Of a DNA stretch of 64,000 nucleotides, positions 28,321 through 48,842 are shown in pieces. Within the stretch, counting starts at the first letter, position 1, and each line of letters starts with the position of its first letter. The DNA is from Nitrospirota bacterium. GTDB lineage: Bacteria > Nitrospirota > Nitrospiria > JACQBZ01. The stretch spans positions 8,974 to 72,973 of the forward strand of contig JACQBZ010000096.1 in assembly GCA_016194285.1 (NCBI GenBank), written 5' to 3'. The notes below the pieces were generated by a model that was not told where the DNA came from, did no database searches, and was given only the letters and a program-made list of their open reading frames with translations. The position numbers and the translations under genes were made by a program.

Positions 28321-28348
28321 AAAGGGGGTGACGCGTGTCACCCCCTTT
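28321..28348 (-). terminator. Rho-independent terminator ending the cytochrome operon
   Basis: A 12-bp perfect stem (AAAGGGGGTGAC/GTCACCCCCTTT) has a 4-nt loop. It is followed on the minus strand by a T-rich run (TTTTGTATTTT), 24 nt after the stop at 28372. Confidence 0.6.
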
Positions 28349-28371: not shown

Positions 28372-30090
28372 TTATTTGCGCTGCGGTTTGGCTGCGCTGG
28401 CCCTTCGGATGATCCAGCCCTCGATCCCAAAAACCACGATCACGGCGATAAAGGGATAGATATAGGCAGTCGTCGGAACCGGCGGCTCAAGGATCGTGTA
28501 GTACCAGGTTGAGATGGATGTTTTCAACCCATGGTCGCCGTTGTTTCCGTCCCAGACAAAAAATACGGTCGGGATGTATTTGCCTTTTTCAAACTGGACT
28601 CCGTTTTCCTTGTCATCCGTCGTCAAGGCCCTCGTCAGAATCACGCGCCACCGGCCGTCTTTATACTCGGAAAAAACAGCCTTGACGTTCTGGCTCGGAC
28701 GAGCTTCGAGTTTCAAATCGCCTCCCATGGCGCCGTGTCCGGTGTACTCCTTCACCGTCCCGTCGGCTTCCCATTTCCAGAGATCAACGGCGTTTTTCGC
28801 ATCCCCGAACACAAATCGCGGCTTTTCCGGAGGCGTCAAGGTTTGCCACTTGCCGGGGAACTCGATGGCCACGGCATCGTTAAACATCGGGTATTCCCTC
28901 AACGCAATCGGTTCTCCGCTTGGCGGGGTTTCCTTGAAACTGGCCTCCTGCGCCAGGGTCTGGGGCGTGGCCACGCTTTTGATCCGATCGTCCCATTCCA
29001 GATACCAACCGATTTCCTTGTCATTAAAAATGGACTTTACCCAAACATCATCAACCAAGCGCACAAAATTCCGCGGCTTGTGGATGATCTGTCCGGCCAA
29101 TCCAATATATTGATTCGGAATTTTCTGCCAGATCGGATCATCCGGATTATTCGGAATGTTCCCTTGGATATTGTGGGCCCTGACCACCACCTGAATGGCG
29201 GGATGAATCGTCTGGGGATCGATCTTTTGCTTCGTGCAGAGTGAGATCACAAAATTCGCAACATCCCAACGCTGCTCCGGGGTCAGGGTTTCGGCAAACG
29301 AAGGCATCGGCGTGCCGTTCAGCCCGGTCGAAACTTCTCGGAAAACATTCCGAGGATTATAAGCATCTTCACGGTTCCCGCGGAAGTTCCAGCACTTGTG
29401 CAGATCGGCCGGAAAGATCGGGAAACCCCATTCGTCCTTCTGGGTTTTGTTTCCGTCGCCGCGTCCCTCATCGCCGTGACATTCCACGCACTTTCCCTTA
29501 TTCATAAAGACATCTTTTCCTCTTTTGATGCTTTCATCCGAGGTGGAGACTTGCTTGCCGTAGTCAATGACATGATACTCTTCATTTTCGGTGTCCTGAA
29601 AGTTCCGGTCTTTTACAAGATCGGCCATGACGAACGCGACCACTTGGTGCCGCTGTTGATCGGTCAGGATCCCATCCCACGGCGGCATCGCGGAGCCCGG
29701 CAATCCATGGGTCACGGTCAAAAAGAGATCATTCTCGGTCGGAAGCTCCCCGCTTCCGGTATGCCGAATCTTAAACGTCCCCGCGTTAAAATTCCGGGGC
29801 CTCGGCCAGAGGCGATCGGCCGAGGGTCCGTCCCCCGCGCCCTCGGGGCCGTGGCACCAAACGCATTTCCTAAAATAGATCTGCTTTCCGGCATCGATGT
29901 CGGCCGGAGAAGGCTTGGCCGGTCGGCCGGCGTTTGCAACCGCAGCCGGTTTTTCCTCTTTTTTGGTTTCGGCCATGGTCAGGACCACGCTTCCGGCTGC
30001 AACGACTGCTACCGTGACAACCCCCATCACGACCGCTTTCTTATAGCTCAAAAGAGATAAAATCCTGTTCATCGCTCGTGCCCCTTTCAC
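28372..30090 (-). CDS. Membrane-anchored dihaem cytochrome c fused to an EB_dh/DOMON-like (haem-b type) C-terminal domain
   Basis: The 572-aa ORF has an N-terminal TM helix and two CxxCH motifs (CVWCH, CVECH) in CcoP-like repeats. The C-terminal ~300 aa resemble the ethylbenzene-dehydrogenase gamma-type domain (IHKPRNFVRL...AVAIEFP...DLWKWEADG). Confidence 0.8.
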   Translation of the reverse strand: MKGARAMNRILSLLSYKKAVVMGVVTVAVVAAGSVVLTMAETKKEEKPAAVANAGRPAKPSPADIDAGKQIYFRKCVWCHGPEGAGDGPSADRLWPRPRNFNAGTFKIRHTGSGELPTENDLFLTVTHGLPGSAMPPWDGILTDQQRHQVVAFVMADLVKDRNFQDTENEEYHVIDYGKQVSTSDESIKRGKDVFMNKGKCVECHGDEGRGDGNKTQKDEWGFPIFPADLHKCWNFRGNREDAYNPRNVFREVSTGLNGTPMPSFAETLTPEQRWDVANFVISLCTKQKIDPQTIHPAIQVVVRAHNIQGNIPNNPDDPIWQKIPNQYIGLAGQIIHKPRNFVRLVDDVWVKSIFNDKEIGWYLEWDDRIKSVATPQTLAQEASFKETPPSGEPIALREYPMFNDAVAIEFPGKWQTLTPPEKPRFVFGDAKNAVDLWKWEADGTVKEYTGHGAMGGDLKLEARPSQNVKAVFSEYKDGRWRVILTRALTTDDKENGVQFEKGKYIPTVFFVWDGNNGDHGLKTSISTWYYTILEPPVPTTAYIYPFIAVIVVFGIEGWIIRRASAAKPQRK

Positions 30091-30114
30091 GTCAACGGAT
30101 GATTAATCCTAGGT

Positions 30115-31029
30115 CTAATCCCATGTTCTGGGGAAGAACTCCGTATGCCAATATTCAAACATGTTCACTTTCCAGATCTCGTCCGTGGTCAGATGCTCTT
30201 CCCATGGCGGCATCGCGGAGGCCCATGGAGCGCTCTCGCGCGGCAATCCCGGTCCTCCCTTGGAGATCCTCCAGAACACAAACGTTTCCTGAAGCTGGGC
30301 GATCGTCCCGGGATCGGCAAAGTTTGCCGGGATTGGAACAAAGGCAAACGCAAACATCCCGCGGCCGTTCAAGTTATCGCCGTGGCAAAAGTGGCAATTC
30401 TGGAAGAAAATGGCTCCGCCGTCTCTCACATTTTTCATATATTGCGGCGCATTCGGGTCAAAAGGATTCATCTTAAAATACTTGGATTCCTGTCCTACCG
30501 GCAGATATTTACCATTATCGTCCACTCTAAAAGGATTTTGAGCAGTCTGCAATGTAAAGTTTGTTCCGCGCACCGTGACGGAGGCGGGCGGAGCCGGATG
30601 AACCGTCCTTAAATCGATCGGCTCGTCAAATTTGGGGAGGTAGAAATCATACGTCCCGTACCCGATGAGCAGCGGAAGAACCACAAAGCTCACCGTTCGG
30701 ATCCCTTTATACATCGGGTTGACCGCCATGACCGTGTTTAAGATGGGTCGTTTAAACTCGGTCCATCCCTTCTCGGTAGAAGAAATAAACAGGAAGACGA
30801 CCAAGGTCACCAACCCCATAAAGGTATAGAGAAGCGCAGACGGTATGGGCGGAAACAACACAAACTTGAAGATCGAGTACGCTCCGAGCCAAAGAAGGAT
30901 GGCCTGCGGAAAAGCCGGTATCCGTTTGCCCATCTTCGTCAGAAGATAGTTCACGCCGACGTAGATGAACGCCACCAAGGTGATAATTAGAAGCAATTCA
31001 ATTGGCATGTAACCCGGAATCCACATCAT
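30115..31029 (-). CDS. Polytopic membrane protein with C-terminal monohaem cytochrome c domain
   Basis: The 304-aa ORF has about 4 hydrophobic helices followed by CHFCH. Confidence 0.8.
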   Translation of the reverse strand: MMWIPGYMPIELLLIITLVAFIYVGVNYLLTKMGKRIPAFPQAILLWLGAYSIFKFVLFPPIPSALLYTFMGLVTLVVFLFISSTEKGWTEFKRPILNTVMAVNPMYKGIRTVSFVVLPLLIGYGTYDFYLPKFDEPIDLRTVHPAPPASVTVRGTNFTLQTAQNPFRVDDNGKYLPVGQESKYFKMNPFDPNAPQYMKNVRDGGAIFFQNCHFCHGDNLNGRGMFAFAFVPIPANFADPGTIAQLQETFVFWRISKGGPGLPRESAPWASAMPPWEEHLTTDEIWKVNMFEYWHTEFFPRTWD

Positions 31030-31101
31030 TCACCTCCGAAATGATCGAATTATTCGAATCCTAGTGGTGTTCACTTAACTTGATGGATCTATGCGTCTAA
31101 G

Positions 31102-32325
31102 TTATTTAGAAGCCGCCTTTCCTCCACCCCCGCCGCACACCGTAGCGAACGATTCCTGCGGGGGCCCGTTCAAACCGTCCTTCTTGGCTTGATCACAATC
31201 CTGAGCCAACAAGTAATCGGCCATCTTTTCCAACGCTCCATAAGTAAACTTCTGGGCAAAGTCCTGGATCATCGGTGAAACCGTTGGATTAGCCTTTTGA
31301 ACAAACTGCGGAACAATAAACGCATTCGGATTGACGATGGATTCCATTACGTATTCCTTTGGTGTTTTTGCATGGGCCTTCCCGGCCTTGACCTGAGCCT
31401 GGTATTCCGGAGAGGCAATACGTCGCGCGGCATTATGCCCCTCGATCAGAAGCGGCCCGATCACGCCGAACTTCGCGGTGGCGATCCCCGGGATTTGATG
31501 ACAAGCAAAACAGCCCATTTTTGTGGCGATCTGATCCGGAGTATCGGAAGCCACTACAATGGGTGGCCCCGCCGGTGCGGCAACTTGCGTCGCTGCAGGG
31601 GCGCCCCCTTTTGGCCGATCGGACTCGGGGATAAACTTCTCATACGCGGCGCGAATTTCTTTGGCTGACGGCGGGGTCTCTCCTTCTCTAAAAAATAGCC
31701 AGGTATCCACCGCAATCAGTTGCTCGATGGTTAAACTGATCGGGGGTTTGTGAACGGCCGGCATCGGACTGTCCTTATCATTAGTGCCCTTTGTACCGAA
31801 GCCCGATACGACATAACAGGCCGGGCAGACATGAGACTCGGCAATATATTCTTCAGCCGTTGTTGCGCGTCCGCTCCCCTTAAAGGATTCAACCTGAACT
31901 GTGTCCGGTTTGAGGTATTTGGGATCCTTGATCCTTTCAGCAGCTCTCTTGGCGATCCCGATTAGATTCGGGGCACGGTCTCCGATATCGCCCGCTTTAA
32001 ATGTATGGCAGAGCGGACATTGCCCTGGCCCGATGCCTCGCTCGGCAAATCCGCCGACCTTTCCAAAGATGACCGCTTCCCCCATCTCGGCCAGTTTATC
32101 GACGGGCATGGTGTCCACCGCACCTGCCTCCATCTTCGGCGGAGGCGGAGGAACTTCACCACGGGTCTGCGGAAGCCAGTTCGAATAACTGGCAAAGATC
32201 CCCGTCATGACCATGTAGAAACCGATCGCCATTAAGATCCCTCGAATCCTCGGCAGATTATAGGCCAAAATGAAGAGAACGATCGAGGACAGCAGAATGG
32301 TGACAGCTAAGAGCCCTTGAGTCAC
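31102..32325 (-). CDS. Membrane-anchored dihaem cytochrome c
   Basis: The 407-aa ORF has two N-terminal TM helices and two CxxCH motifs (CPLCH, CFACH). Confidence 0.8.
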   Translation of the reverse strand: MTQGLLAVTILLSSIVLFILAYNLPRIRGILMAIGFYMVMTGIFASYSNWLPQTRGEVPPPPPKMEAGAVDTMPVDKLAEMGEAVIFGKVGGFAERGIGPGQCPLCHTFKAGDIGDRAPNLIGIAKRAAERIKDPKYLKPDTVQVESFKGSGRATTAEEYIAESHVCPACYVVSGFGTKGTNDKDSPMPAVHKPPISLTIEQLIAVDTWLFFREGETPPSAKEIRAAYEKFIPESDRPKGGAPAATQVAAPAGPPIVVASDTPDQIATKMGCFACHQIPGIATAKFGVIGPLLIEGHNAARRIASPEYQAQVKAGKAHAKTPKEYVMESIVNPNAFIVPQFVQKANPTVSPMIQDFAQKFTYGALEKMADYLLAQDCDQAKKDGLNGPPQESFATVCGGGGGKAASK

Positions 32326-32398
32326 GTTAGATCTCCTGTGGGTAAGATTTGGGGGCCGGCTGGAACCGGCCCCCAGAGATTAGTAATGAGGTTGACGA

Positions 32399-34321
32399 TT
32401 ACTCCGAGCCGCCGGCCATGGCGGGCCGAGCGACCTCTTTCCTCGCCTCGGCGAGTGCATGTTGCGAGGTCAGTTCGCCCAACCAAAATACAAACAATAC
32501 AAACAACCAGAAAGCCATCACATTGATCGACATCACGTTGGCCGCGAACCCAATCGTGTGGGTAAAGGCCCACGGGGAATTATCCCGAAACACCTCCATC
32601 ACGTGCCAGAACAACCGCACCGAGGATCGGATATATCCCATCAAGGCCATTAACCATGTAAAGGAGACCGCCAGGGCAAAAAGGGCATACTGCGAGCGCA
32701 CCGAGATTTTGCCCCACTCAATCGGCCCGGTCAACTTGGACCCTTTCATCATGGCGATGTTAATCGCGCTCCCGATAAACAACGTGGTTAAAGTTCCAAC
32801 GACCTGAGGCACGGACAGTCCGACACGCACATTGGCGGGGATGAAATATCCATAAATCGCCAGCCACCAGTTATTGACCAGGGCCACCGCAAACATCGCC
32901 ATTAAGGCGCCGTTGCCCCATGCCTCCCATTTCACCGTTACGATTTTATTACTGCGCTGATACAAGAGGAAAGAAATGATCGTGGTCATGATCATGGTGT
33001 TCACGGCGCCGTTCTTGGCCGACATCACACCAAAGTTTCCGATCACGGGATGTTGTTGCCCTCCGATGGCCTTCAACTCGGCGGGCCGCATCACCAAGGT
33101 ATGCGGCGTCAACCAAACCAGAAAGGCGGCCGTCGTAAGGAATAGGATGTACTTAATATATTTCTGGTATCGCTCCGCACCCCTCATCCGTTCCATTCCG
33201 TTGAACAGATAATAGTTGGTCGAGAAGAAGAGCGCGCCGATCAGCACCGCCTGTATGATAAACAACCAGGCCAGCAAACCGCCCATCAGCGTGATGCCCA
33301 TCTGCTGGCGGAAACCGTACACTTCACGCATCAGCCAGTAACCGGCAAAAGGCAATGGAATGAGCGACCCGACCGCCAAGAACATCGCAATGTATCCCAT
33401 CCAATCGTAGTAGGCCTTCTCTTCCTGATTCTTGGCCGCAAGGAATTTATACGCTGCGTAGGCCGCAACGATTCCGCCGCCGAACACCATGTTTCCGATG
33501 ATCCGGTGAACATTCAGGGGATTCCATAAGGCATTGTGCATAACCGCCCAGAGATTCCCCAAATATCGACCCTTCTCATCCACGCCGGCCGGGGACATCA
33601 TGAAACTCGCCCATGAATTGGCCAACATCATCAGAACCGTTCCAAACACGTTCAAGAGCACACCCATGCTGGCATGGATCCATTTTGCAAAACCATGGGC
33701 CATGCGGTCCCACCCATAATAATAGAGATAAAGGGTTCCGCTTTCGGCCAAGAAGAGAAGGGCGTAGATATGCATCACGGGCTTGAAAAGGGAGGAGAGA
33801 TACTTAAAGAAATCAGGATAGAGTGTAATAAAACTAAAGATAAGCAATCCGCCGAGGATTGCGGTAACGGAGTAAGCGGTGAGGCTGATCTTGACCATGA
33901 GATGGGCCAGATCATCATATTTCTTGGCCATCACAGGATCCTTCACCAACAGGCCGACCAGTTCGATGATCATGCAGAAGATCGGAACAGCCAGAACAAA
34001 GCTCCCGAAATAAAGATGCTGCTGGGCGATCGACCAGATGATAATTCGGTTTTCGCTGAGAGGATACGGGAGGTTATAACTTGGATAATCGGTGGCTTTT
34101 AATTCGGGAACAGGCGGGCCGGAGACGGGACCTTCTTTCTTATAGTAAATATCCTTGGCCATCTCGACCTTGGGCGCAGTCTCGGTTACGGCCTTGGTCG
34201 CATCGTCAGCCATTACAGGGGTTGAGAGAAGCGGCATAACGAGAGACATCAATAACATCGTCGCCACGGCCCCGAACGAGATCAGGGACCAGACCCGTAT
34301 TCTTCTGCTCATTGCCTTCAT
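32399..34321 (-). CDS. Cytochrome bd-like (CydA-homologous) polytopic membrane protein, putative terminal-oxidase subunit
   Basis: The 640-aa ORF has many TM helices and CydA-like blocks (IAQQHLYFGSFVLAVPIF; NSWASFMMSPAG; WNPLNVHRIIGNMVFGG). No cydB-like gene is adjacent. Three cytochrome c genes follow it. Confidence 0.8.
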   Translation of the reverse strand: MKAMSRRIRVWSLISFGAVATMLLMSLVMPLLSTPVMADDATKAVTETAPKVEMAKDIYYKKEGPVSGPPVPELKATDYPSYNLPYPLSENRIIIWSIAQQHLYFGSFVLAVPIFCMIIELVGLLVKDPVMAKKYDDLAHLMVKISLTAYSVTAILGGLLIFSFITLYPDFFKYLSSLFKPVMHIYALLFLAESGTLYLYYYGWDRMAHGFAKWIHASMGVLLNVFGTVLMMLANSWASFMMSPAGVDEKGRYLGNLWAVMHNALWNPLNVHRIIGNMVFGGGIVAAYAAYKFLAAKNQEEKAYYDWMGYIAMFLAVGSLIPLPFAGYWLMREVYGFRQQMGITLMGGLLAWLFIIQAVLIGALFFSTNYYLFNGMERMRGAERYQKYIKYILFLTTAAFLVWLTPHTLVMRPAELKAIGGQQHPVIGNFGVMSAKNGAVNTMIMTTIISFLLYQRSNKIVTVKWEAWGNGALMAMFAVALVNNWWLAIYGYFIPANVRVGLSVPQVVGTLTTLFIGSAINIAMMKGSKLTGPIEWGKISVRSQYALFALAVSFTWLMALMGYIRSSVRLFWHVMEVFRDNSPWAFTHTIGFAANVMSINVMAFWLFVLFVFWLGELTSQHALAEARKEVARPAMAGGSE

Positions 34322-34486
34322 GGCTAATCTCCCTCTGACTTAATTAAAGAATCTTCAGCCTCGCCATTCCCATTTTAGTCTTTTATTTAATCTAAACTAC
34401 TTCTTAGATTAAGCAACTTCAAGGTCAAGGTTTTTTTTAAAAAACAAACCCGCATTTGCCTCAAAAACCTGCATTTTTCTAGGTCC

Positions 34487-34515
34487 TAGATAGCACCAAA
34501 GGACAATTTTGTCAA
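34487..34515 (-). promoter_or_regulatory. Candidate sigma70-type promoter for the bd-like oxidase operon
   Basis: On the minus strand the sequence reads TTGACA-N17-TATCTA, inside the AT-rich 225-nt gap upstream of the oxidase ATG. Confidence 0.3.
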
Positions 34516-34545
34516 GTAAAAAATCAAAAGCCGATTTTGCCACTT

Positions 34546-34662
34546 TTAGTGGAATAGGAAAAAGTAATCAAGCCCTTGAATTTTCATGAAAAACCAGTCC
34601 ATTGTCTGAAAATATACAACCCATACCACAAGCATGACGAGAAAAGCGACCACCGTCTTCAT
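34546..34662 (-). CDS. Unannotated 38-aa hydrophobic mini-protein
   Basis: Own translation: MKTVVAFLVMLVVWVVYFQTMDWFFMKIQGLDYFFLFH*. The SD AAAGGTGG lies 5 nt upstream. The ORF is below the ORF-track size cutoff. Confidence 0.3.
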   Translation of the reverse strand: MKTVVAFLVMLVVWVVYFQTMDWFFMKIQGLDYFFLFH

Positions 34663-34707
34663 GATATCCACCTTTCTTCAAAAGAGAATGGCAAAGTCTC
34701 TACCGGA

Positions 34708-34809
34708 TCAATTATGGTATACCGCTGCAAGCCAATAGAAGAACCAGATCGAAACAAGACAGACGATGATATATAAAATTGGTCCTGCGTTTTGACGAAT
34801 TTTATCCAT
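34708..34809 (-). CDS. Unannotated 33-aa single-TM mini-protein
   Basis: Own translation: MDKIRQNAGPILYIIVCLVSIWFFYWLAAVYHN*. A strong SD (AAGGAGAGAGAA) lies directly upstream. Confidence 0.35.
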   Translation of the reverse strand: MDKIRQNAGPILYIIVCLVSIWFFYWLAAVYHN

Positions 34810-34937
34810 TTCTCTCTCCTTGAGGTGCGCCCCGAGTTCAATAACGCCCGCGATCTTAGTGAATTAAAAAAAGTTTGTCAAGAAAAAAATCCAAATGAAA
34901 CACCGTTTAAACAAAAGCCGAACCGGTCCCCCATTCA

Positions 34938-35858
34938 CTATGGCTGGGAGCCCGTCTTCGCACACCGGAACCCGATCGTTACATCGCGATATTCAGGATA
35001 CATCTTAAAACGGATCGAGGTCTGTGCACGCTTGATCGAATCGTTCCAGGAAGCTCCGCGAATGACCCGACTCTCCCCCTCCGAGACTCCGACGGGATTG
35101 CTCGCGGGCAACATGCGATAGGAATCCTGGTTATACCAATCCGCAACCCACTCCATCGCATTGCCCGCTAAATCATAAACCCCGTACGGGCTGACGTCCC
35201 GCTTAAATTGATTCACCGGAGCTGTATATGGCACGCCGTCGTCACCCACTAAATTGGCAAATTCGGACCGTTCCTCGTTGCCCCAAGGCCATTTTCGTTG
35301 GTCCGTTCCTTTGGAAGCTTTCTCCCATTCCGCCTCGGTTGGAAGGCGTTTGCCTTTCCATTGGCAATACTCCACCGCGTCATCCCAGGACACTCCGACG
35401 ACCGGGTTCAAGGCCTTGATGAAGAGCGGTATATCTTCTGTCGCGCCCGCCGAAAGATAGCCGGCCAGTCGAGGTTTCCGGTGCCCGGTAAGTCCGATGA
35501 ATTGGTAAAACTGCGCAAAGGTGACCTCGTACTTATCGATAGAATACCCGTCCAGATAGACCTTCCTTACGGGCTTCGCGTCATTGGAACCATCGTGGCT
35601 TCCCATGAAAAATTCGCCGGCGGGGATGAAGACCATCGATTCGAAATCCTCATCGATTTTGGCCTGTCTTACCTCGAGTTCGGCTTTCTGAGATTCTTCG
35701 GACACCTTCGCCAATTTTGTCGCCAGCGGTGTGTATCCCTGATCGGTTCGCGGCTCCTCCAAATCGGGTGGTCCTGATTTCTGACGGATTCCGATCTGAA
35801 TAATGACCAGGATCAAGAAAACAACCGCCAAGTAGATACCGATCAAGTACTTACTCAT
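34938..35858 (-). CDS. Membrane-anchored FGE/SUMF1-family (formylglycine-generating-enzyme-like) protein, paralogue 1
   Basis: The 306-aa ORF has an N-terminal TM helix and FGE-sulfatase domain motifs (VGVSWDDAVEYCQWKGKRLPTEAEWEKA, YDLAGNAMEWVADWY, RVIRGASW). It lacks the C-terminal CxxxxC copper-site pair of true FGEs. Confidence 0.88.
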   Translation of the reverse strand: MSKYLIGIYLAVVFLILVIIQIGIRQKSGPPDLEEPRTDQGYTPLATKLAKVSEESQKAELEVRQAKIDEDFESMVFIPAGEFFMGSHDGSNDAKPVRKVYLDGYSIDKYEVTFAQFYQFIGLTGHRKPRLAGYLSAGATEDIPLFIKALNPVVGVSWDDAVEYCQWKGKRLPTEAEWEKASKGTDQRKWPWGNEERSEFANLVGDDGVPYTAPVNQFKRDVSPYGVYDLAGNAMEWVADWYNQDSYRMLPASNPVGVSEGESRVIRGASWNDSIKRAQTSIRFKMYPEYRDVTIGFRCAKTGSQP

Positions 35859-36072
35859 GACGCATCTCGAATCCTGAGCGGGTCACCCTCTTGACTCTTG
35901 AGTAACTCGCGATTTGCGGATGTCCGATTTCCTCGGCTCAGAGATAAAGCGATGGGCAATAAATATAGATGGTGACGATCCGAATTGTATGCCAAAGGGA
36001 GGCCTGGAGAGCGACAGGAGCCAGAAATCGCAAATGAGGGAGGTGTAAGCGAGTTTCAACAGCCCGAATTTT

Positions 36073-36303
36073 TCACCGGCGACGGCCCGTCACGGCCACC
36101 TTGGGATCCGCCATACCCACTTCTCCGTTTGAGCCTTCATGGGATGGCCATGCCATCGTTTCGGCTCGTTTTTGGCGGCTGACCCGGGACCGGTACAGCA
36201 TCTGACCGACAAAAATTCCGGCCATGAACACGGCACCCGTATAAAACAGGACATAGACGGCATAAAAGAAATGCTTCACTCCGTTCACCCCCTCAACCAC
36301 CAC
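36073..36303 (-). CDS. Small membrane protein, YTGAVFMAG-motif family (copy 3)
   Basis: The ORF contains HFFYAVYVLFYTGAVFMAGIFVGQMLY. By analogy with copy 1, the likely start is the GTG at 36279, preceded by the SD GAGGGGG. Confidence 0.55.
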   Translation of the reverse strand: MVVEGVNGVKHFFYAVYVLFYTGAVFMAGIFVGQMLYRSRVSRQKRAETMAWPSHEGSNGEVGMADPKVAVTGRRR

Positions 36304-36373
36304 CGCTCGCTTGTAACGGGCAGATTAACACGGAAATTTCCGCCTCCGGCCATTCGACACCCTTGAACCGGGC

Positions 36374-36646
36374 TCATCGTTTTAGGGTCAGTTCATCCGA
36401 TTCGCTAACCTCCGTCAGATCGGATTCTGATCCGCTCACCGCTGCGGCGGCCGCTTGCGTGGAGAACCTCTCCTCCAGCTTTTCTCCGATGTACACGCCG
36501 ATCATAAATACGGCCCCCGTATACACCAGCACATAGAGGGCATAGAGTTGTCCTACCAACATGCCCGCCATGAATACAGCGGCCGTGTAGACACCGATTG
36601 AGACCAGAGAAAAAAGACGCCTCACGTACCGAACGACCTTTCCCAA
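36374..36646 (-). CDS. Small membrane protein with two YT(A/G)AVFM(A/I)G-motif helices (copy 2, internally duplicated)
   Basis: The ORF contains VSIGVYTAAVFMAGMLVGQLY followed by ALYVLVYTGAVFMIGVYIGEKL, then an acidic tail. The start codon is uncertain (TTG at 36646 or GTG at 36625). Confidence 0.6.
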   Translation of the reverse strand: MGKVVRYVRRLFSLVSIGVYTAAVFMAGMLVGQLYALYVLVYTGAVFMIGVYIGEKLEERFSTQAAAAAVSGSESDLTEVSESDELTLKR

Positions 36647-36728
36647 CGCCGTCTTTAAATCCGTTCAGCAAAACGTGGCTGAGTGGATGCGTTGACGATG
36701 TTCCAGGCGAATCGTTGCCACCCGGTGT

Positions 36729-36848
36729 TCAAACCCCTCGACGACTTTCCCACGCGCGTTCCAGTTTTTCTCCAACATACATCCCGGCCACAAAAACAGC
36801 GGCCGAGTAGAGGGAAACGGAAAGGGCGTAAAAAAAGAAATGGACCAT
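36729..36848 (-). CDS. Unannotated 39-aa membrane mini-protein, same motif family (copy 1)
   Basis: Own translation: MVHFFFYALSVSLYSAAVFVAGMYVGEKLERAWESRRGV*. The SD GAGGGAGAGAG lies upstream. Confidence 0.4.
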   Translation of the reverse strand: MVHFFFYALSVSLYSAAVFVAGMYVGEKLERAWESRRGV

Positions 36849-37197
36849 CCGAACTCTCTCCCTCGCAAGCTCGCCAGACCTTAGGTTTCTAATTATAAAA
36901 GTTTTTCAACCGACGTGTCAAGCTTAACCCGAGAACCCCTGTCCGTTCCTTGGGTTCGGATCCGCAGATAAGATGGTTCACAGAAATCGCTTGACTTTTG
37001 ACAGATCCTTGATAGAATGGGTTGCCATTCAATGGCCCTTCGGAATCGCACCATGGATATCCCTGAACAGAAAAAGAGAAACACACCCACCTTTGACTTT
37101 ATTGTTTTACTTGGCATGGTGGCAAACCTCATCCTGGCCGTTTTCCTAATCCTCTATTACTTCGGTTTTTTCTAGAAAAATCGTTACACTCAAAAGC

Positions 37198-38133
37198 TCA
37201 GGGAGTCGTTTTGGTGGAGCTGGATTTCATGGCATCCCCTGGTGTGACATCTTTCGCACAACGGAATCCAATCACCGCGCTGGTTTGGTGTTGAGCCGCC
37301 ATAAATCGCTTGGCCACCCTCGCATTAACCGAGGAATCATTCCAGGAGCCGCCCCGATAGACCCGGAATTTTCCCGTTTCGGGTCCTTTGGGGACCTTGA
37401 AAGGAGCGTTTTTGTAATAGTCCGCATCATACCAATCGGCCACCCACTCCGCGGCATTACCCGCCATATCGTATAGCCCATAGGGACTTCGTCCTGGTTC
37501 AAATCGCCCCGGGGGGGCTAGAAATTTATAACCGTCTTCTTCTCCCGTCAGATTGGCCGCCTTTTCGATAAAATCATTTCCCCACGGCCATCGGAAGCTT
37601 TGATCTCCACCCGCCGCCTTTTCCCACTCGGCTTCGGTGGGCAATCGCTTCCCGGCCCATTGACAATAATCTTTTGCGGCACTCCACGATACACCCACCA
37701 CGGGCAGTTCGGGTTTGGTGATGAGGGATAACTCCTCCTGAAAGACAGGAACTACCGGCATGGGATATTGGGTGGCCACCGAGAATTTCGAGAACTGGGC
37801 CTGGGTTACCTCCTTCAAATCGATCGAAAAAGCCGGCAGGAAAACCGCATGCTGCGGCATTTCATCCAAATCCCCGTTCGCAGCCGGACTGCCCATTTGA
37901 AAAGGTCCGTCCGGGATTACGACCATTTCTGAACCATCTTCCGTCATGATCGTGTTGAAACGGCTGAAATCGCGCAGGCCGGTTTGTCGTTCTTGTGTCT
38001 GCTCGACTTGCGTGCTTCGAGGCTTGGATGCTAACCGACTTGTTTTCCAAGCATCATAGATGAAGAAACCGATCAACAGAAAAAAAGAAGCGAAGACGAT
38101 GAGTGTTCCGTAATAAAACGCATCCTTTTTCAT
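37198..38133 (-). CDS. Membrane-anchored FGE/SUMF1-family protein, paralogue 2
   Basis: The 311-aa ORF has an N-terminal TM helix and the same FGE-domain motifs (VGVSWSAAKDYCQWAGKRLPTEAEWEKA, YDMAGNAAEWVADWY, RVYRGGSW). Confidence 0.88.
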   Translation of the reverse strand: MKKDAFYYGTLIVFASFFLLIGFFIYDAWKTSRLASKPRSTQVEQTQERQTGLRDFSRFNTIMTEDGSEMVVIPDGPFQMGSPAANGDLDEMPQHAVFLPAFSIDLKEVTQAQFSKFSVATQYPMPVVPVFQEELSLITKPELPVVGVSWSAAKDYCQWAGKRLPTEAEWEKAAGGDQSFRWPWGNDFIEKAANLTGEEDGYKFLAPPGRFEPGRSPYGLYDMAGNAAEWVADWYDADYYKNAPFKVPKGPETGKFRVYRGGSWNDSSVNARVAKRFMAAQHQTSAVIGFRCAKDVTPGDAMKSSSTKTTP

Positions 38134-38309: not shown

Positions 38310-38991
38310 GTGAAACCGATGCGCTCCTGGGATCGGCGAAAGTTCCTCCAAATCTCCGGCCTAAGCACCCTGCTTAGCCTGGGCGCTAACAGGGCTCAGG
38401 GTGCGATCTATTTTCTTAAAACGTTCCTATCGCTCCCTCCCCGGAATACCCCGCCCGTCACACCGAATTCCCAATTCTACGTTTACGACCTGGGCCGCAT
38501 GTCGAAACGGCTACCCTCTGCGCGCCGTTGTGCCGGGAATTTATGGAATGAAGAATGTGAAATGGATTATGGAAATCGAAGTAACCGATGCGGATTATCT
38601 GGGATATTGGCAACAGCGGGGGTGGTCGGATGAAGCTCTCATTGGAATCATGTCCCGGATCGACAGTCCCGGCGCCTATCAGGAGCTGAGCGGTTTGAAG
38701 CAGGTCATCCGAGGCATCGCCTTCGCCGGCTCGTCCGGAATCCAGAAGGTCGAGGTCAGCACCGACGGTGGGCGACGTTGGAACCTCGCGCAACTTAATC
38801 CGCCCCTCTCCGCTTACACATGGGTATTCTGGCGGTTTGACTGGCAAGTCCCTCAGCCGGGGATCTATCGCATCGTTGTCCGCGCCGCCGATCGATCGGG
38901 CCGCCTTCAGACCGCTGAGTACAGTCGAGGATTTCCAGACGGGACGACCGGCTTCCATGCGATCACCGTGGAGGTGGTCCAGCGATCTTAA
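38310..38991 (+). pseudogene. Sulfite-oxidase-family molybdoenzyme gene with internal deletion and frameshift
   Basis: Frame 1 gives a Tat signal (RRKFLQISGLSTLL) and TPNSQFYVYD. Frame 2 continues with NGYPLRAVVPGIYGMKNVKWIMEIEV and a Mo-co dimerisation-like domain. About 150-180 aa of the catalytic core expected between these blocks are absent. Confidence 0.7.
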
Positions 38992-39002
38992 GTCTTTCCC
39001 TG

Positions 39003-39055
39003 GAAATAACGTGGTGTCCCCAAGGGGATTCGAACCCCTGTTACCGCCGTGAAAG
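39003..39055. repeat. Island attachment-site repeat (left): copy of the tRNA-Glu 3' end plus 9 nt
   Basis: This 53-nt sequence is identical to 45657-45709, checked base by base. Confidence 0.9.
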
Positions 39056-39185
39056 TTCTTAAGTGGCATTTTTCACAGGGTCTTGATTTTGGGCTGGTTT
39101 CCCCGTTTTTCTTCTGAAATCAACGCATTGCTTGTGGTCTACTGATTCTATTAGGTCCATCCATTATTGGGATTTTTGAAGAGTT

Positions 39186-39204
39186 TTAGCACAATTTTAG
39201 CACA
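39186..39204. repeat. Tandem TTAGCACA motifs (11-bp register) near the left island end; a third copy lies at 39246-39253
   Basis: The sequence reads TTAGCACAATTTTAGCACA. The same doublet with the same 11-bp spacing occurs at 45597-45615. Confidence 0.6.
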
Positions 39205-39335
39205 GTGCTGTGGTGGGGTGAACCCCTCGGTTGAGACAATCTGGATTAGCACACTTGCGGTTTAATGGATTGTCCTGCTCATCGGATCGCTACATTTCCT
39301 TCATGTCTAAAAAATAGTCAGGCCCTTTATACCGA

Positions 39336-39659
39336 TTATCGAACTATCGCTCTTAAGACCTTTACTGCAATCTTTAACTTGTCAGGTGTAGCTTCCTTCA
39401 TCAAATCATTCAGAACTTCCTTCAGTTCCTTCGGATTTTCAGCTTCGTGAGCGAATTCAAAAAAGTCTTTCAATTCCACATGTAACGCACCGGCCAGTTT
39501 TGCCAGGGTATCCAAAGAAGGAAAACTCCCTCCAACTTCTATTCTGCTTAAGTGTTTCGCGTCTATTCCGACCTTTTCAGAGAGTTTTTCCTGCGATACC
39601 CCCTTTGTCTTCCGAATCTCTTTAACCCTTGCCCCAAGTTGTTCTTTTATCGTTCTCAT
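39336..39659 (-). CDS. XRE-family helix-turn-helix regulator
   Basis: The 107-aa ORF has the HTH_3 pattern GARVKEIRKTKGVSQEKLSEKVGIDAKHLSRIEVG. Confidence 0.85.
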   Translation of the reverse strand: MRTIKEQLGARVKEIRKTKGVSQEKLSEKVGIDAKHLSRIEVGGSFPSLDTLAKLAGALHVELKDFFEFAHEAENPKELKEVLNDLMKEATPDKLKIAVKVLRAIVR

Positions 39660-39959
39660 AAGCCCCCCCCAGGATGGCTTATGTTCATCCTTGAGAGCCG
39701 TTTATGGAACAGCATGAGATGTAGAGTTTATTGACAAAGTACGTATTTGAGGTAGACTTATCTACATTGAGAACAGGTATTATAGTAATTTATCAGCATT
39801 ACAGAGGGTGTTAAGTAATGGCATATTCCACATCTGAAGAAATGTGAATGCGCCCTAAAGCGGCTTGCAGTTATCCAACTGGGGGGAGCGATCCTGATCT
39901 GGACCAGTTTATGACCACAAGAAATGGCTATCAACTGCAAACAAAAGGAGGAAGACAAC

Positions 39960-40337
39960 ATGAAGAAGGTGATCGCGGTGTTGTTGCTTGTTGTGAATTG
40001 CATGGGCTGTGGCACTTTGTTTAATGGGACGACAAAGAATGTTGGCATTTCGTCAAGTCCCTCAGGGGCGCAAGTAATCGTGGATGGCCGTTCCTATATC
40101 ACCCCGGCTCAGGTGGGACTTAAACGAAACCAGACCTACGCCATTACGGTTCAAAAGGAAGGATATGAACCCGCTGGAGCAACGGTACAGCGGTCCGTTT
40201 CTGGATGGATTTGGGCCGATGTGGTCTCCATGCTCGCGGGTGGAGCTGGACTGCTGGGCTTGATTGTCGATTTTGTGGATGGCGGTGCTTATGATTTGGA
40301 ACCGGATAACGTTAACGTGAATCTTCAGAAAAAATAG
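39960..40337 (+). CDS. PEGA-domain lipoprotein
   Basis: The start MKKVIAVLLLVVNCMGCG (lipobox) follows the SD AAGGAGG. A PEGA-like segment (AQVIVDGRSYITPAQVGL...ITVQKEGYEP) follows. The ORF track begins at 39924. Confidence 0.75.
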   Translation: MKKVIAVLLLVVNCMGCGTLFNGTTKNVGISSSPSGAQVIVDGRSYITPAQVGLKRNQTYAITVQKEGYEPAGATVQRSVSGWIWADVVSMLAGGAGLLGLIVDFVDGGAYDLEPDNVNVNLQKK

Positions 40338-40415
40338 CGAGTGCGTTGCTTCTTTGCAAACCTATAGGTTTATTTTGATCAAAGCACTCAGACAACGAGC
40401 AACGAGGAGGGAACA

Positions 40416-40640
40416 ATGAATAGGTTGAAGAACGTTATAAGCATAGCCATTGTTGTGTTGATGTTCAGCATGGTGGGCTGTGCGGCTTCGATGGTACTGA
40501 TGAAGAACGACAAAGGGGAGATCGCCCGCTGCGAACCGAACACCGGATCGACAATCGCTTTCGGCTATATTGGCAGCAAGATGTCGGTCAATTCCTGTGT
40601 GGCCGAGTACGAAAAGCTGGGGTACAAGCGGGTGCAGTAG
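40416..40640 (+). CDS. Small lipoprotein, unknown function
   Basis: The 74-aa ORF has a signal peptide with the lipobox LMFSMVGC and is preceded by the SD GAGGAGGG. Confidence 0.6.
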   Translation: MNRLKNVISIAIVVLMFSMVGCAASMVLMKNDKGEIARCEPNTGSTIAFGYIGSKMSVNSCVAEYEKLGYKRVQ

Positions 40641-40723
40641 GCGAAGCCGGAAACCCACGTCGGCCAAGAGTACCCCTACCCCGCTGATTTGTTTCACCGC
40701 CCTGTTAAATTCGCAAAGGCCGG

Positions 40724-41653
40724 TTACAAGCCTTTTGTTTTTACCACAGTGTCAATTCGCTTGAATCTAAGCTCATCTATAAATTGTTGAACTTGGGCGT
40801 TTTGCAAAAAATCAGGGATCAACACTACAATTAGCTCTGAACCGTAACGGCTGGCATACTGGTCCATTTGTCCCAAGGCGCGCTGAAGTTCACTGTTGCT
40901 CTTGGGCATCTTGAACTCCACACCGACACCACCCTGTTGAGGATGTCCGATATGGAAGTCGATCTTCAACGTTGTGCCGTGCGCAACAGGAAGCTGCTCA
41001 TGTACATTATCTGGATCAAAAATCTCTAACATTTCGTCCATAAAGTCTTGATAACAATCCTTCTCATACTCATAGTTCTTTAGAATAGGGTACCATTTAA
41101 CAAACGGAATAACGGTTTGCTTGGTTATTGGTATCGCATCCGAGAGAGTGGGCAACCAGCCTTCACGATACCCGATCTCACGATAAATTCTCCTGACGAG
41201 AATATTTTTCGGTCCCTCGCTGTCTATATCGAGCTCTTGACAAATCTCAGATAAGGTTGCCGCATTGTAAGGGTTGAGATAAAAGATGGTCTGTTCTGGA
41301 AAGTCCTCAGGAGACATGGAAAGGTATTTCGTGTGTTGCTTTATACGGACCATCTTCTCTTCTACGGTACCAACTGGATCTTGACCTATTTTTCGTAACC
41401 AATCTGACAGCTCTTGAGAAGTTGAAAAATCGAGATAGCATTGAAGAAGTTTTTCTCTGAATTGCATGTCTACAGTGGGCTTGGCTTCATCTACAGAGGA
41501 CGTAGAGGAAATGCCAGACGGCACAGACGTGGTATCGTTGGTCAGCGGAGCGGCTTTATTGTCCGGTTCTGAAGTAGAAGGAACCTGCTTGCCACAGGAT
41601 GGACAGAACCGAGCCTTATTAGGAACGTTCGACCCACATGAAACACAGAACAT
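40724..41653 (-). CDS. Zinc-ribbon / tandem SAP-like / PD-(D/E)xK-like protein, unknown function
   Basis: The start MFCVSCGSNVPNKARFCPSCG follows the SD GGGGAGGA. There are two SAP-like helices (ELSDWLRKIGQDPVGTVEEKMVRI; TLSEICQELDIDSEGPKNILVRRI). The C-terminus reads LKIDFHIG...GVGVEFKMP...Q, a D...ExK pattern. Confidence 0.75.
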   Translation of the reverse strand: MFCVSCGSNVPNKARFCPSCGKQVPSTSEPDNKAAPLTNDTTSVPSGISSTSSVDEAKPTVDMQFREKLLQCYLDFSTSQELSDWLRKIGQDPVGTVEEKMVRIKQHTKYLSMSPEDFPEQTIFYLNPYNAATLSEICQELDIDSEGPKNILVRRIYREIGYREGWLPTLSDAIPITKQTVIPFVKWYPILKNYEYEKDCYQDFMDEMLEIFDPDNVHEQLPVAHGTTLKIDFHIGHPQQGGVGVEFKMPKSNSELQRALGQMDQYASRYGSELIVVLIPDFLQNAQVQQFIDELRFKRIDTVVKTKGL

Positions 41654-41773
41654 AGCTTTTATCCTCCCCAATGGTGATATTCCGACTACTAACTTCTTTA
41701 GTGCTTCTATTTTGGACCCTCCAACTTTAGCGCTTTTACAGGCTGCCTATGAAAGAGTGAGGCGTTTTATCTT

Positions 41774-42418
41774 CTAAGAGCATTGCCCTGAGGTAGTCGG
41801 ATAAGAACCGCTTGAGGTCTCAATATCCATACGATATAGATCTAACGCCGAATCAAGAAATACGTCTTCATTCCATATCTCAAACTTCTTTTTATTATAT
41901 CGCCAACCGATGTTTACGTTGTCGTGGCTCCATTTGTCCCCGCCCCCGAAATCATTTAGGATGTCGGCGATGAGCGACCAACATGGTTTACGCGTTAAGC
42001 GCTTAAAGTACGCCTGTAAAATCCAAACAAAAGTCCACTGCGTTGCGGGAGGCTTTGTCCTGACTTTCTGTACGCGTTTATCCAGACGTGGTATGGAGAT
42101 AAACTTGCCAGTATCATCCATAATCTGTTCGGTATAGTATTCCATTTTTCCCAGTTGCTTTAGTCCCCGAAGATAAAGTTGCTTCCAGATATCTTTCCAT
42201 CTTTTTCCTTCTTTTTTCATGAGATGACGCTTCATCTTCTTATAATTTGCTTCCTTTCGATTCTTAGCTTCCTTCCCATGACCGGTAACAAACGGTAGGG
42301 TTAGGGGGTTTAGCATGTGCTGATCCTCGGCCAACCAACGGACAAAATCCACGTTTCCACCGATTTCGTTTAATTTTTGCTTCCAGTCCAGGCTGGACCT
42401 CATCCGCTTCCTTCCCAT
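41774..42418 (-). CDS. Hypothetical basic protein, no recognisable domain
   Basis: The 214-aa ORF is Lys/Arg-rich and AT-rich. An alternative start lies at 42403, after a GGAAGGA SD. Confidence 0.6.
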   Translation of the reverse strand: MGRKRMRSSLDWKQKLNEIGGNVDFVRWLAEDQHMLNPLTLPFVTGHGKEAKNRKEANYKKMKRHLMKKEGKRWKDIWKQLYLRGLKQLGKMEYYTEQIMDDTGKFISIPRLDKRVQKVRTKPPATQWTFVWILQAYFKRLTRKPCWSLIADILNDFGGGDKWSHDNVNIGWRYNKKKFEIWNEDVFLDSALDLYRMDIETSSGSYPTTSGQCS

Positions 42419-42472
42419 CTCGTGTCCAAAAAAAGGGGTGGTATTGTAATATCTCTCTTTTATTAGAAATAG

Positions 42473-42504: not shown

Positions 42505-42506
42505 GC

Positions 42507-47620: not shown

Positions 47621-48430
47621 TTATTTTGCGGCAAATGCAAAATCGGCCGTCGCCTTGCCCTTCGCCGGAACGGTCACTTTTGCTTCCTGCGCACCCAAGA
47701 TCGGATGGAAGGCATGAATTTCATACGTGCCCGGTGGAACACCATCAATGGAAAAAGTTCCATCCTCATTGACGATGGCATAATACGGATTACTCACGGG
47801 CTGGAAATAAACTTCCATGTAGTTGTGCTGGTCACACTGGATTTTCATCGTGCTTTCCTTTTTCCGAAGGACTACAGGCTTTTTGATGACCTGTCCTTTC
47901 TCGGGAAGCGGAAGATTGAAGATGGTGCTGCTGTTGGCACCCGATTGTTCATAGGCATGCGGGTTATGCAGTACCCCCGTGGCGGCTTTCGGATCCGTCG
48001 GATCGGCATCGGTATTCAAGATTCGGATCTCGGCCTTCTTCACCACAACGCCTGTCAAGGTGGAAGGGCCGCCCTGCACTTTAAACCGACAAAGATCGGT
48101 TTTAACATCCGTCCCTTCGAATTTGAACGGCTTTCCTTTCTCGATCTCCTCGATGAAGACCACAACATCCGTCAGGGCCCCGTTCTTAACATTGACCTGC
48201 TGGACAATACGATGGCCCTTCCCATCCGAATCGGCTTGTTCACAGAACTTTGAATTGGGGAATTTTGCAAAATCAAACTCCTTTGGTGCAGGCACCGCTC
48301 CCTTAAATGACACCTTACCCGTAATGGTTCCTCCGTCCGGAACCGGCGCTTCTTCATACGCCGAAACGATTGGAGCGCCGATTAAACTGACCGCGACGGC
48401 CAGACCAAACGCTGCGATAAACCCTTTCAT
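47621..48430 (-). CDS. Secreted protein with carboxypeptidase-regulatory-like ends and a cupredoxin-like His...Cys-x2-His-x2-Met pattern
   Basis: The start MKGFIAAFGLAVAVSLIGAPIVSA (signal peptide) follows the SD AAGGAAAGGAG. It contains LHNPH and, about 44 aa later, QCDQHNYM (47816-47836). The C-terminus contains DGTFSIDGVPPGTYEI. Confidence 0.8.
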   Translation of the reverse strand: MKGFIAAFGLAVAVSLIGAPIVSAYEEAPVPDGGTITGKVSFKGAVPAPKEFDFAKFPNSKFCEQADSDGKGHRIVQQVNVKNGALTDVVVFIEEIEKGKPFKFEGTDVKTDLCRFKVQGGPSTLTGVVVKKAEIRILNTDADPTDPKAATGVLHNPHAYEQSGANSSTIFNLPLPEKGQVIKKPVVLRKKESTMKIQCDQHNYMEVYFQPVSNPYYAIVNEDGTFSIDGVPPGTYEIHAFHPILGAQEAKVTVPAKGKATADFAFAAK

Positions 48431-48842
48431 CTTCTGATCTCCTTTCCTTGTATGAGTAGAGGGGAACTCCGCTCTACTTTCTTTTCCCACCTTTAGAAAA
48501 GACTAAACTTGTTGTTGTCTTCCGCCGGCCTGCTGAAAACTTGCTCTTTATTTGGTTTATGGTTACAGGGTTCCCGACCCACTTAATGGTGGTCGTACCT
48601 TTTGAGAGGACTGACAGAACTTCAATGAGGAAGACCCTTTGACCATTTCTACACCGTTCGATGCCCCCTGTAAAAAACGGTTTCGAAGTCTACGCCACAA
48701 TTTCAACCCTGTCAAGAAAAAAATTCTACGCCCTATTTTGGGGGGTGTCAAGCTCGAAAGTCGGCCGATCCTTCAATTCGGCTTGCAATGCGGATGGGAA
48801 TCGATTATAAAAGTGGATCAAACTCGAGACCGGGCCGGCATC

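Follow-up and report, generated by a model that had tools for sequence, protein, structure and literature searches.

A conserved FGE-fold protein pair and mini-proteins beside the bd-like_3 / cytochrome c / NxrC-like gene cluster of Nitrospirota

We analysed a 64,000-nucleotide stretch of DNA from a Nitrospirota bacterium (GTDB lineage Bacteria; Nitrospirota; Nitrospiria; JACQBZ01), hereafter called the window (GenBank assembly GCA_016194285.1, contig JACQBZ010000096.1, positions 8,974 to 72,973 of the forward strand). The window carries genes for two proteins with the fold of formylglycine-generating enzymes (FGE), here named FGE1 and FGE2, and for the mini-proteins miniA, miniB, miniC, 'anti', sm33 and sm41. 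These genes lie next to a cluster encoding a bd-like membrane protein, two c-type cytochromes and an NxrC-like protein (Table 1). An earlier note, made from the sequence alone, had described positions 28372-38133 as a block of genes on one strand. The genes it named do lie on the minus strand, but the block is interrupted by the conserved plus-strand gene 'anti', and it is therefore unlikely that everything from FGE2 to the end of the cluster forms a single operon. The layout of transcription units is read from one conserved promoter, promoter-like sites and one terminator, and not from transcripts. An Rfam scan of 27.5-46.5 kb returned two transfer RNAs (tRNAs) only, and the long intergenic gaps held no RNA element. 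A search for a second bd-like gene in the window found none. The NxrC-like protein matched PF13442, PF00034, PF09459 and TIGR03477 (dimethyl sulfoxide-reductase type II gamma subunit).

Table 1. Features of the window (positions 1-64,000); L numbers denote loci of the neighbourhood comparison.
Feature	Position	Strand	Description	Basis
FGE2	37198..38133	-	311 aa, FGE-fold, one N-terminal hydrophobic helix, no catalytic Cys pair	PF03781
'anti'	37053..37175	+	40-aa single-helix mini-protein, convergent with FGE2	
Promoter-like site 5' of 'anti'	36991..37018	+	TTGACT-16-TAGAAT with TG	consensus scan, 10/12 matches
Sigma-70 promoter 5' of miniA	36892..36921	-	TTGACA-18-TATAAT	consensus scan, 12/12 positions
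miniA	36729..36848	-	39 aa, one helix, motif YSAAVFVAGMYVGEKLE	open reading frame and GGGAGAGAG ribosome-binding site
miniB	36374..36625	-	83 aa from GTG start; two hydrophobic segments, motif in each; acidic tail	
miniC	36073..36279	-	68 aa from GTG start; one helix (YTGAVFMAGIFVGQ); basic tail	GAGGGGG ribosome-binding site
FGE1	34938..35858	-	306 aa, FGE2 paralogue, N-terminal helix, no catalytic Cys pair	PF03781
Promoter-like site 5' of sm33	34853..34881	-	TTGACA-17-TAAGAT	consensus scan, 10/12 matches
sm33	34708..34809	-	33-aa single-helix mini-protein	jackhmmer across loci
sm41	34546..34671	-	38-41-aa mini-protein, C-terminal motif MKIQGLDYFF	directly 5' of bd-like gene
bd-like (CydA-like, OR-N type) membrane protein	32399..34321	-	orthologue of N. 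moscoviensis bd-like_3	PF01654 E=3e-14
Membrane-anchored c-type cytochrome	31102..32325	-	407 aa	weak Cytochrom_C and SoxX matches
Membrane-bound c-type cytochrome	30115..31029	-	304 aa, syntenic	PF13442, PF00034
NxrC-like, alt_NxrC_2 type	28372..30090	-	di-heme c and EB_dh haem-b domain, terminal membrane anchors	
Intrinsic-terminator-like hairpin	28321..28348	-	12 bp, 7 GC pairs; cluster end	
CarboxypepD_reg / fn3_3 protein	47621..48490	-	counterparts at L003 9111-9893, L087 7635-8450, L088 7654-8466, L089 7703-8560	

The bd-like protein of the window is 66% identical to that encoded in the corresponding locus of Nitrospira moscoviensis (L029), where the coordinates identify bd-like_3 as NITMOv2_3643 and bd-like_4 as NITMOv2_3650 of Mundinger et al. 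2019. The gene order of the window cluster (CydA-like, two membrane cytochromes c, NxrC-like) is that of L029 and of about 70 more loci, and the window genes between 28372 and 34321 are orthologous to the bd-like_3 / alt_NxrC_2 cluster with the order kept. In N. moscoviensis, bd-like_3 clusters with two c-type cytochromes and alt_NxrC_2, a cluster that ranks within the 40 most transcribed genes. Its conservation extends to Nitrospina and anammox bacteria, and it has been discussed as a possible anchor of nitrite oxidoreductase (NXR) or as a route of reverse electron flow (Mundinger et al. 2019, PMC6606698). The cluster has also been named TO_1 in papers on 'Ca. Manganitrophaceae', and such proteins have been placed in the OR-N family of the cytochrome bd superfamily. 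As a bd-like_3 orthologue, the neighbour of the FGE-like genes is not the proposed Cu-containing terminal oxidase, which is another paralogue, bd-like_2 (PMC6606698).

In the literature that we searched, the published gene lists of this cluster comprise the bd-like gene, two cytochromes c and the NxrC-like gene, and the FGE-like or small genes are not mentioned; searches linking FGE or SUMF1 to Nitrospira bd-like clusters returned nothing relevant. The FGE2 orthologue of N. moscoviensis is NITMOv2_3647, annotated as a conserved protein of unknown function. In L029 (NZ_CP011801, 3442014-3446289), the RefSeq tags RS16745 and RS16755 correspond to bd-like_3 and the FGE2 orthologue. Going by the tag numbers and not by the record itself, only one gene fits between them, which suggests that 'anti', sm33 and sm41 are unannotated in RefSeq.

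Gene neighbourhoods were compared across the best 80 loci of a bd-like profile search of species-representative genomes (GTDB), a sample that stops short of anammox bacteria and more distant relatives. Loci fetched via individual proteins were added, and all loci were searched with the window proteins. To be counted, a locus needed the 407-aa cytochrome gene behind the bd-like gene and an upstream flank of 4 kb or more (n=65). FGE2, FGE1, 'anti', sm33 and sm41 were all found in 62 of them, that is, in 62 of the 62 Nitrospirota loci, whose bd-like proteins are 61-92% identical to that of the window. Linkage to a bd-like gene was the decisive check named in the earlier note. It holds without exception for the FGE pair in these Nitrospirota loci, whereas miniA, miniB and miniC lie outside the conserved core and the linkage is absent in the three Nitrospinota loci. 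In turn, the conserved core module holds three mini-proteins that the earlier note did not report, namely 'anti', sm33 and sm41.

Downstream, the 407-aa cytochrome gene is syntenic in 80 loci, with the bd-like gene directly followed by its homologue. Upstream, the arrangement differs between lineages. The order in Nitrospira is bd-like_4 ... FGE2-FGE1-anti-sm33-sm41-bd-like_3, and that of the window lineage is FGE2-anti-miniA-miniB-miniC-FGE1-sm33-sm41-bd-like. There, no second bd-like gene occurs within the sampled flanks, and the FGE pair still lies beside bd-like_3. Another FGE-like gene (309 aa) was found singly and directly 5' of a stand-alone bd-like paralogue (685 aa) in a marine Nitrospiraceae metagenome-assembled genome (MAG; L066, 8553-11800). 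No cytochrome or small genes accompany this second pair, and the same MAG has a standard locus (L024).

Both FGE1 and FGE2 match the whole FGE-sulfatase domain PF03781 in Pfam (E=1.2e-56 and E=5.4e-58, respectively) and are 44% identical to each other across 268 aa. FGE1 forms an orthologous group separate from FGE2, with a median margin of 39 bits. Each protein has one strongly hydrophobic N-terminal 19-mer (mean Kyte-Doolittle hydropathy 2.1-2.9). Since no Cys lies within or after this segment, neither protein has a lipobox. The description of two paralogues of about 310 aa, each with one N-terminal helix and an FGE domain, is thereby confirmed. Structure prediction, which had been suggested as a check, was run on FGE2 with AlphaFold2. 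The model placed residues 5-36 in a helix, and its best Foldseek matches were the FGE structures 2q17, 6muj and 6s07. However, with 41 homologues the mean predicted local distance difference test score (pLDDT) was only 67.9 and the former active-site region was poorly modelled; the model was used solely to confirm the fold and the N-terminal helix. Within the membrane helix of FGE2, residues G9, F14, F17 and L19 are near-invariant.

As reference for the Cu(I)-binding Cys pair we used C336 and C341 of human FGE and, for T. curvata FGE, the cysteines in its LCHESYC segment. In the alignment of FGE2 to T. curvata FGE, one of the two cysteines falls in a two-residue deletion and the other is replaced by Val; in that of FGE1 to human FGE, C336 falls in a gap and C341 is replaced by Ile. 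FGE2 was aligned to human FGE as well, again with both catalytic cysteines missing. The Cys pair at the positions of the human C218-C365 disulfide is retained and invariant, and these two structural cysteines are the only invariant ones across the 41 homologues. The GNxxEW motif of the calcium site is likewise retained and invariant, and Ser263 and several Arg residues by the former active site are conserved. No replacement cluster of His or Cys was found among the invariant columns of the homologue alignment. Among the called genes within 10 kb in L001, L003, L005, L087 and L088, none encoded a PF00884 sulfatase. FGE1 and FGE2 are FGE-fold proteins and not sulfatase maturases, as the earlier note had thought probable from the missing copper-binding pair.

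Nor do the two proteins fall into other named groups of the family. With NCBIfam models they scored 85 for EgtB (TIGR03440, cut-off 360), 83 for SenA (cut-off 420), 79-97 for PvdO (NF051459, cut-off 500) and 104-106 for GldK (TIGR03525, cut-off 350), and the neighbourhood lacks pyoverdine genes. A DinB domain, which in EgtB, OvoA and SenA builds the iron site jointly with the FGE-like domain, is absent from both; at their N-terminus, the hydrophobic helix leads into a linker of about 45 residues (low model confidence). The tandem two-FGE-domain proteins P0068 and P0097 were considered as FGE2-FGE1 fusions. This was rejected, as both are internal duplications and their neighbourhood, with sugar-metabolism and toxin-antitoxin genes, is unrelated.

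A role in maturation or metal supply of the neighbouring oxidase had been put forward, as a speculation, by analogy with NirV. The FGE pair would then be a transient factor that delivers a metal or cofactor to the oxidase or cytochromes, or modifies them post-translationally, by a chemistry other than that of copper-dependent FGE, and the minis would be its membrane partners. Several features are compatible with such a factor. Synteny is equally expected, the FGE2 transcript lies below those of the structural genes, the conserved Ser and Arg residues remain near the former active site, and the family holds several enzymes (FGE, EgtB, OvoA and PvdO, as named by NCBIfam). However, both copper-binding cysteines are gone from both paralogues with no invariant His/Cys cluster in their place, the DinB domain is lacking, bd-like_3 is not the paralogue proposed to bind copper, and the Nitrospinota versions of the complex do without the FGE-like and small genes. 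Our analysis yielded no result in support of this role, and we regard it as improbable.

The analogy with NirV itself comes down to shared domain membership. Like FGE1 and FGE2, NirV is an FGE-domain protein of unknown function whose gene is linked to a redox enzyme of nitrogen-cycle bacteria, and it accompanies NirK in about 61% of nirK genomes (PMC4770552). NirV has no demonstrated function, though, and is dispensable for NirK maturation, so that it offers no mechanism to carry over to the FGE pair. It is a single gene that adjoins nirK and has no mini-proteins, whereas the partner of the FGE pair is the bd-like / cytochrome c / NxrC-like set, and no copper nitrite reductase gene lies near the pair in the window or in five annotated loci. 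The comparison covers the shared domain and gene context.

Parallels are also found among non-catalytic FGE-fold proteins. The PF03781 fold is common to FGE1, FGE2, SUMF2/pFGE, PorK/GldK, Tsi3 and PvdO; the window proteins share with SUMF2, Tsi3 and PvdO the lack of the two copper-binding cysteines, and they retain the GNxxEW calcium-site motif. PorK, which was among the PDB matches of the FGE1 and FGE2 searches, is a ring lipoprotein of the type IX secretion system and thus a structural part of a large envelope machine. Tsi3, an immunity protein of the type VI secretion system, acts by protein binding (bioRxiv 10.1101/2021.05.21.445229). SUMF2, PorK, Tsi3 and PvdO differ from the window proteins, which carry a hydrophobic anchor at the N-terminus in place of a lipoprotein or secretion signal and always occur as a conserved paralogous pair that is encoded with mini-proteins beside a respiratory cluster.

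This wide use of the fold for binding also fits an envelope module that is independent of the complex, either a ligand-binding or sensor-like receptor of C-type-lectin fold or a protective binding protein. Its position would then reflect shared ancestry or co-regulation. The variable protein TvpA (2y3c) of a diversity-generating retroelement (DGR) and the kinase-linked FGE domain of ToxD were, like the Tsi3 immunity proteins, in line with such a function, and both were among the PDB matches. Moreover, opposite-strand 'anti' divides the cluster into separate transcription units, and all linkage loci come from one phylum. Yet the linkage is exceptionless in 62 loci, through rearrangements and across the full range of bd-like identities, and sm33 and sm41 lie directly 5' of the bd-like gene. 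The second pairing of an FGE-like with a bd-like gene (L066) also speaks against independence, and no kinase, regulator or DGR element was found in the neighbourhoods examined. We therefore consider an independent module doubtful, though it is a serious contender.

Between FGE2 and FGE1, the window carries three small open reading frames (ORFs) that share the motif YTGAVFMAG. The three ORFs hold four motif copies, and the window, translated in six frames, contains no others. At the DNA level these copies make up a repeat family with 66-77% identity, and the ORFs match one another with phmmer E values of 1e-7 to 1e-12. Orthologues and ribosome-binding sites place the likely starts so that miniB has 83 aa and miniC 68 aa, not the 90 and 76 aa first proposed. 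The GTG start of miniB is ATG in relatives, and that of miniC is ATG in L003 and L007.

Being short (39-90 aa as first called), without database annotation and separated by gaps of 94-214 nt in the window, such ORFs could be chance motifs or a DNA-level repeat, artefacts of a GC-rich intergenic region. Their evolution refutes this, and we give it next to no probability. Ratios of nonsynonymous to synonymous substitution rates (dN/dS) against orthologues are about 0.2-0.3 for miniA, 0.03-0.05 for miniB (close orthologues) and 0.03-0.1 for miniC, and in related contigs the substitutions fall mostly at third codon positions. Diverged orthologues, down to about 25-30% identity, occupy the same locus position in L008, L009 and L087-L089. 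In L087-L089 the start and stop codons of miniA, miniB and miniC overlap, which suggests translational coupling. Ribosome-binding sites are present, and the miniA promoter is conserved. The site scores 11-12 of 12 at the same place in 11 of 11 mini-carrying loci, compared with only 7-9 of 12 in Nitrospira loci without minis.

The family comprised 40 clusters (50% identity) among 1.84 billion representative proteins and 129 proteins in a database of 5.8 billion. All members with a named source come from Nitrospirota, Nitrospiria or Nitrospirae MAGs and are called hypothetical, and the family has no Pfam or NCBIfam match. Its conserved core reads roughly Y-A-x-Y-V-L-x-Y-T-G-A-x-F-M-x-G-x-x-x-G-Q-R-x-E-R-x-W in the family alignment, a hydrophobic helix that has packing motifs of the small-xxx-small type and leads into a charged juxtamembrane stretch. 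Between them, miniA, miniB and miniC have four hydrophobic segments, and an AxxxA-GxxxG packing motif occurs in every one. The YTGAVFMAG motif is missing from the first hydrophobic segment of miniB in distant relatives; the repeat inside miniB is thus a trait of the window's closer relatives. An origin of the minis from a larger neighbouring protein was considered and rejected, as within the window they match each other only. Judged by this pattern of sequence evolution, miniA, miniB and miniC are genuine genes of an unassigned, locally duplicated family, as the earlier note had held apart from the lengths of two of them.

The minis are confined to one lineage outside Nitrospiraceae and thus appear as a lineage-specific insertion into a module found in every sampled Nitrospirota locus. 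In Nitrospira (L005, 8886-9945, and equivalents in most loci), a DUF3047 protein and a 118-aa glycine-rich multi-helix membrane protein are encoded between bd-like_4 and FGE2. Within the sampled flanks, this trio (DUF3047 protein, 118-aa protein and bd-like_4) and the minis are mutually exclusive.

The small genes of the conserved core are spread more widely. The core of 'anti', FDIIVLAGMVVNIILAVFLILYYFDFL, is near-invariant in 80 loci (34-45 aa), which contain 76 different DNA sequences for no more than 23 protein sequences. The three codon positions have entropies of 0.33 / 0.07 / 0.96, and this concentration of variation at the third position identifies 'anti' as a protein-coding gene on the plus strand. 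sm33 was detected in 79 loci, always between the FGE genes and the bd-like gene, and sm41 in 80, including Nitrospira sp. Kam-Ns4a and N. moscoviensis. Both lie within about 60-230 nt of the start of the bd-like gene, and their hydrophobic 19-mers score 2.2-2.3. For all small genes tested, the substitution patterns show strong purifying selection.

No reliable Pfam or NCBIfam match was found for 'anti', and the mini-proteins gave no significant match in either database at E up to 5, the CydX, CydS and CydH families included. COX4_pro_2 (PF07835, aa3 subunit IV) was considered for 'anti' and rejected as a chance match (19.3 bits against a gathering threshold of 22, E=0.0014); one of 21 'anti' family members matched it at E up to 1. 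Searched against PDB sequences, the 'anti' profile returned no oxidase subunit and only matches of transmembrane composition, for example the ActA helix of 6f0k.

In their layout, sm33, sm41 and 'anti' resemble CydX, CydS/CydY, CydH, CcoQ and aa3 subunit IV, which are likewise strongly conserved proteins of 30-70 aa with one helix, encoded beside the gene of a catalytic subunit. Such small subunits stabilise or tune their complex, and when a small single-helix protein is encoded next to an oxidase gene, it generally proves to be a subunit. The description 'single helix, <70 aa, beside a cydA-type gene' applies to sm33 and sm41 in 79-80 loci, a resemblance of layout only. The mini-proteins of the window have no sequence relationship to these oxidase subunits. 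They also differ from them in that one small gene lies on the opposite strand and that the YTGAVFMAG family is triplicated, with one member internally repeated. FGE-fold proteins without catalytic function and small membrane proteins associated with oxidases are both known kinds of protein; their combination here is previously undescribed and very consistently conserved.

We see roughly an even chance that the FGE pair and the mini-proteins belong to the bd-like_3 / cytochrome c / NxrC-like complex as accessory or assembly components without catalytic activity. This reading is favoured because the synteny in Nitrospirota is exceptionless and survives rearrangement, because the membrane helix of FGE2 has near-invariant residues, because all known catalytic apparatus of the FGE family is lost, because binding or structural proteins of this fold are already known (Tsi3, PorK) and because of what small single-helix proteins beside oxidase genes usually are. 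The FGE-like and bd-like pair of L066 counts as an independent second case. Strong purifying selection on the small genes, the overlapping mini genes with their conserved promoter, and the transcription of the FGE2 orthologue and bd-like_3 in N. moscoviensis also speak for this reading. The physical association with the complex, the heterodimer and the membrane side of the FGE domains are inferred.

FGE1 and FGE2 would be anchored in the membrane and would use their fold for protein binding or docking, comparable to PorK/GldK, Tsi3 and SUMF2. They are always found together, which suggests a heterodimer, and probably act as one. 'anti', sm33 and sm41 would be small single-helix subunits of the same assembly, like CydX/CydS or CcoQ in role and not in sequence. 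In the window lineage, miniA, miniB and miniC would be made from their own strong promoter 5' of FGE1 and are probably co-transcribed with FGE1; within the membrane they may extend the assembly by a small bundle of helices. A stronger version, which we entertain only tentatively and well below even chances, is that the FGE heterodimer, 'anti', sm33 and sm41, and in some lineages miniA, miniB and miniC, are unrecognised subunits of the NXR-linked bd-like complex. The FGE domains would then link the complex to a soluble partner, either by forming the docking site or as a new catalytic site.

Several points weigh against an accessory or assembly role. Three of the 65 counted loci, all from Nitrospinota, have neither the FGE pair nor the small genes. 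They keep the bd-like/cytochrome/NxrC-like core, with housekeeping genes such as hisD upstream and none of the FGE-like or small genes within 10 kb; these genes are thus not needed for core function. Since the 62 linkage loci belong to one phylum, the synteny could partly be inheritance and not selection. Opposite-strand 'anti' sits between FGE2 (in Nitrospira, both FGE genes) and the genes downstream, so that co-transcription with the oxidase is not guaranteed. In N. moscoviensis, bd-like_3 holds transcription rank 37 and the FGE2 orthologue rank 539, the FGE2 transcript reaching about 15% of the bd-like_3 level. Such a level is more in line with an assembly factor or a sub-stoichiometric partner than with a core subunit. 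Furthermore, the association of the FGE pair and the minis with the complex is deduced from sequences.

The membrane side of the FGE domains is ambiguous as well. The earlier note had them face the periplasm; the hydrophobic helix was confirmed, the orientation was not. Contrary to that orientation, 73% of FGE2 orthologues carry more positive charge on the flank behind the helix than on the N-terminal flank, and the sole pointer to periplasmic domains is the invariant Cys pair at the disulfide positions of human FGE. If the FGE domain were cytoplasmic, contact with the periplasmic cytochromes would be impossible.

Around the cluster, we made several further observations. In both lineages a molybdenum-cofactor gene directly follows the NxrC-like gene (window 26981-28219, minus strand; L005 18956-19603). 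The window, L001 and L003 have moeA at this place, and Nitrospira sp. Kam-Ns4a has an NTP_transf_3 gene (possibly MobA-like). This is in keeping with a molybdoenzyme as partner of the complex. On the other side, a truncated molybdopterin oxidoreductase gene (window 38401-38991, plus strand), probably a remnant, lies between FGE2 and the boundary of a genomic island. What is left of it covers the end of the Oxidored_molyb domain (36 positions) and a part of the Mo-co_dimer domain; a full-length Oxidored_molyb gene is located 5' of the cluster in L087.

The island is an integrative element of 6.65 kb (window 38998-45709) with low GC (about 47%), inserted at a tRNA-Glu gene (45666-45743) and bordered by a 58-nt direct repeat (38998-55 and 45652-709, 97% identical). 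It encodes a tyrosine integrase (44510-45658), HTH/MerR-like regulators, a PEGA-domain protein and a zinc-ribbon protein. The element splits the FGE2 side from purA; in L001, purA and FGE2 are only about 0.7 kb apart. In several mini-carrying lineages a CarboxypepD_reg / fn3_3 protein of 270-290 aa is encoded just 5' of FGE2 and may share the neighbourhood; in the window, purA, three tRNA genes and the island separate its gene from FGE2. Elsewhere in the window (6498-11039, minus strand), a predicted surface protein of 1513 aa combines Laminin_G_3, Big_2, HYR and PKD domains, and the stretch that holds its gene has a lower GC content (about 51%) than the flanks.

Nitrospira-type bacteria carry out much of global nitrite oxidation, and the route of their membrane electron transfer is still unsettled. 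What the highly transcribed bd-like_3 / alt_NxrC_2 cluster consists of has so far been deduced from no more than four genes. The FGE pair and the three near-invariant mini-proteins 'anti', sm33 and sm41 are concrete candidate components for the bd-like_3 complex, and the YTGAVFMAG family with its conserved consensus promoter is a clean case of a new mini-protein family expanding beside such a complex. Should the subunit reading hold, this would be the first FGE-fold subunit in a respiratory complex, and it would explain a Nitrospirota-specific feature of a highly expressed, functionally unassigned complex of nitrite oxidisers.

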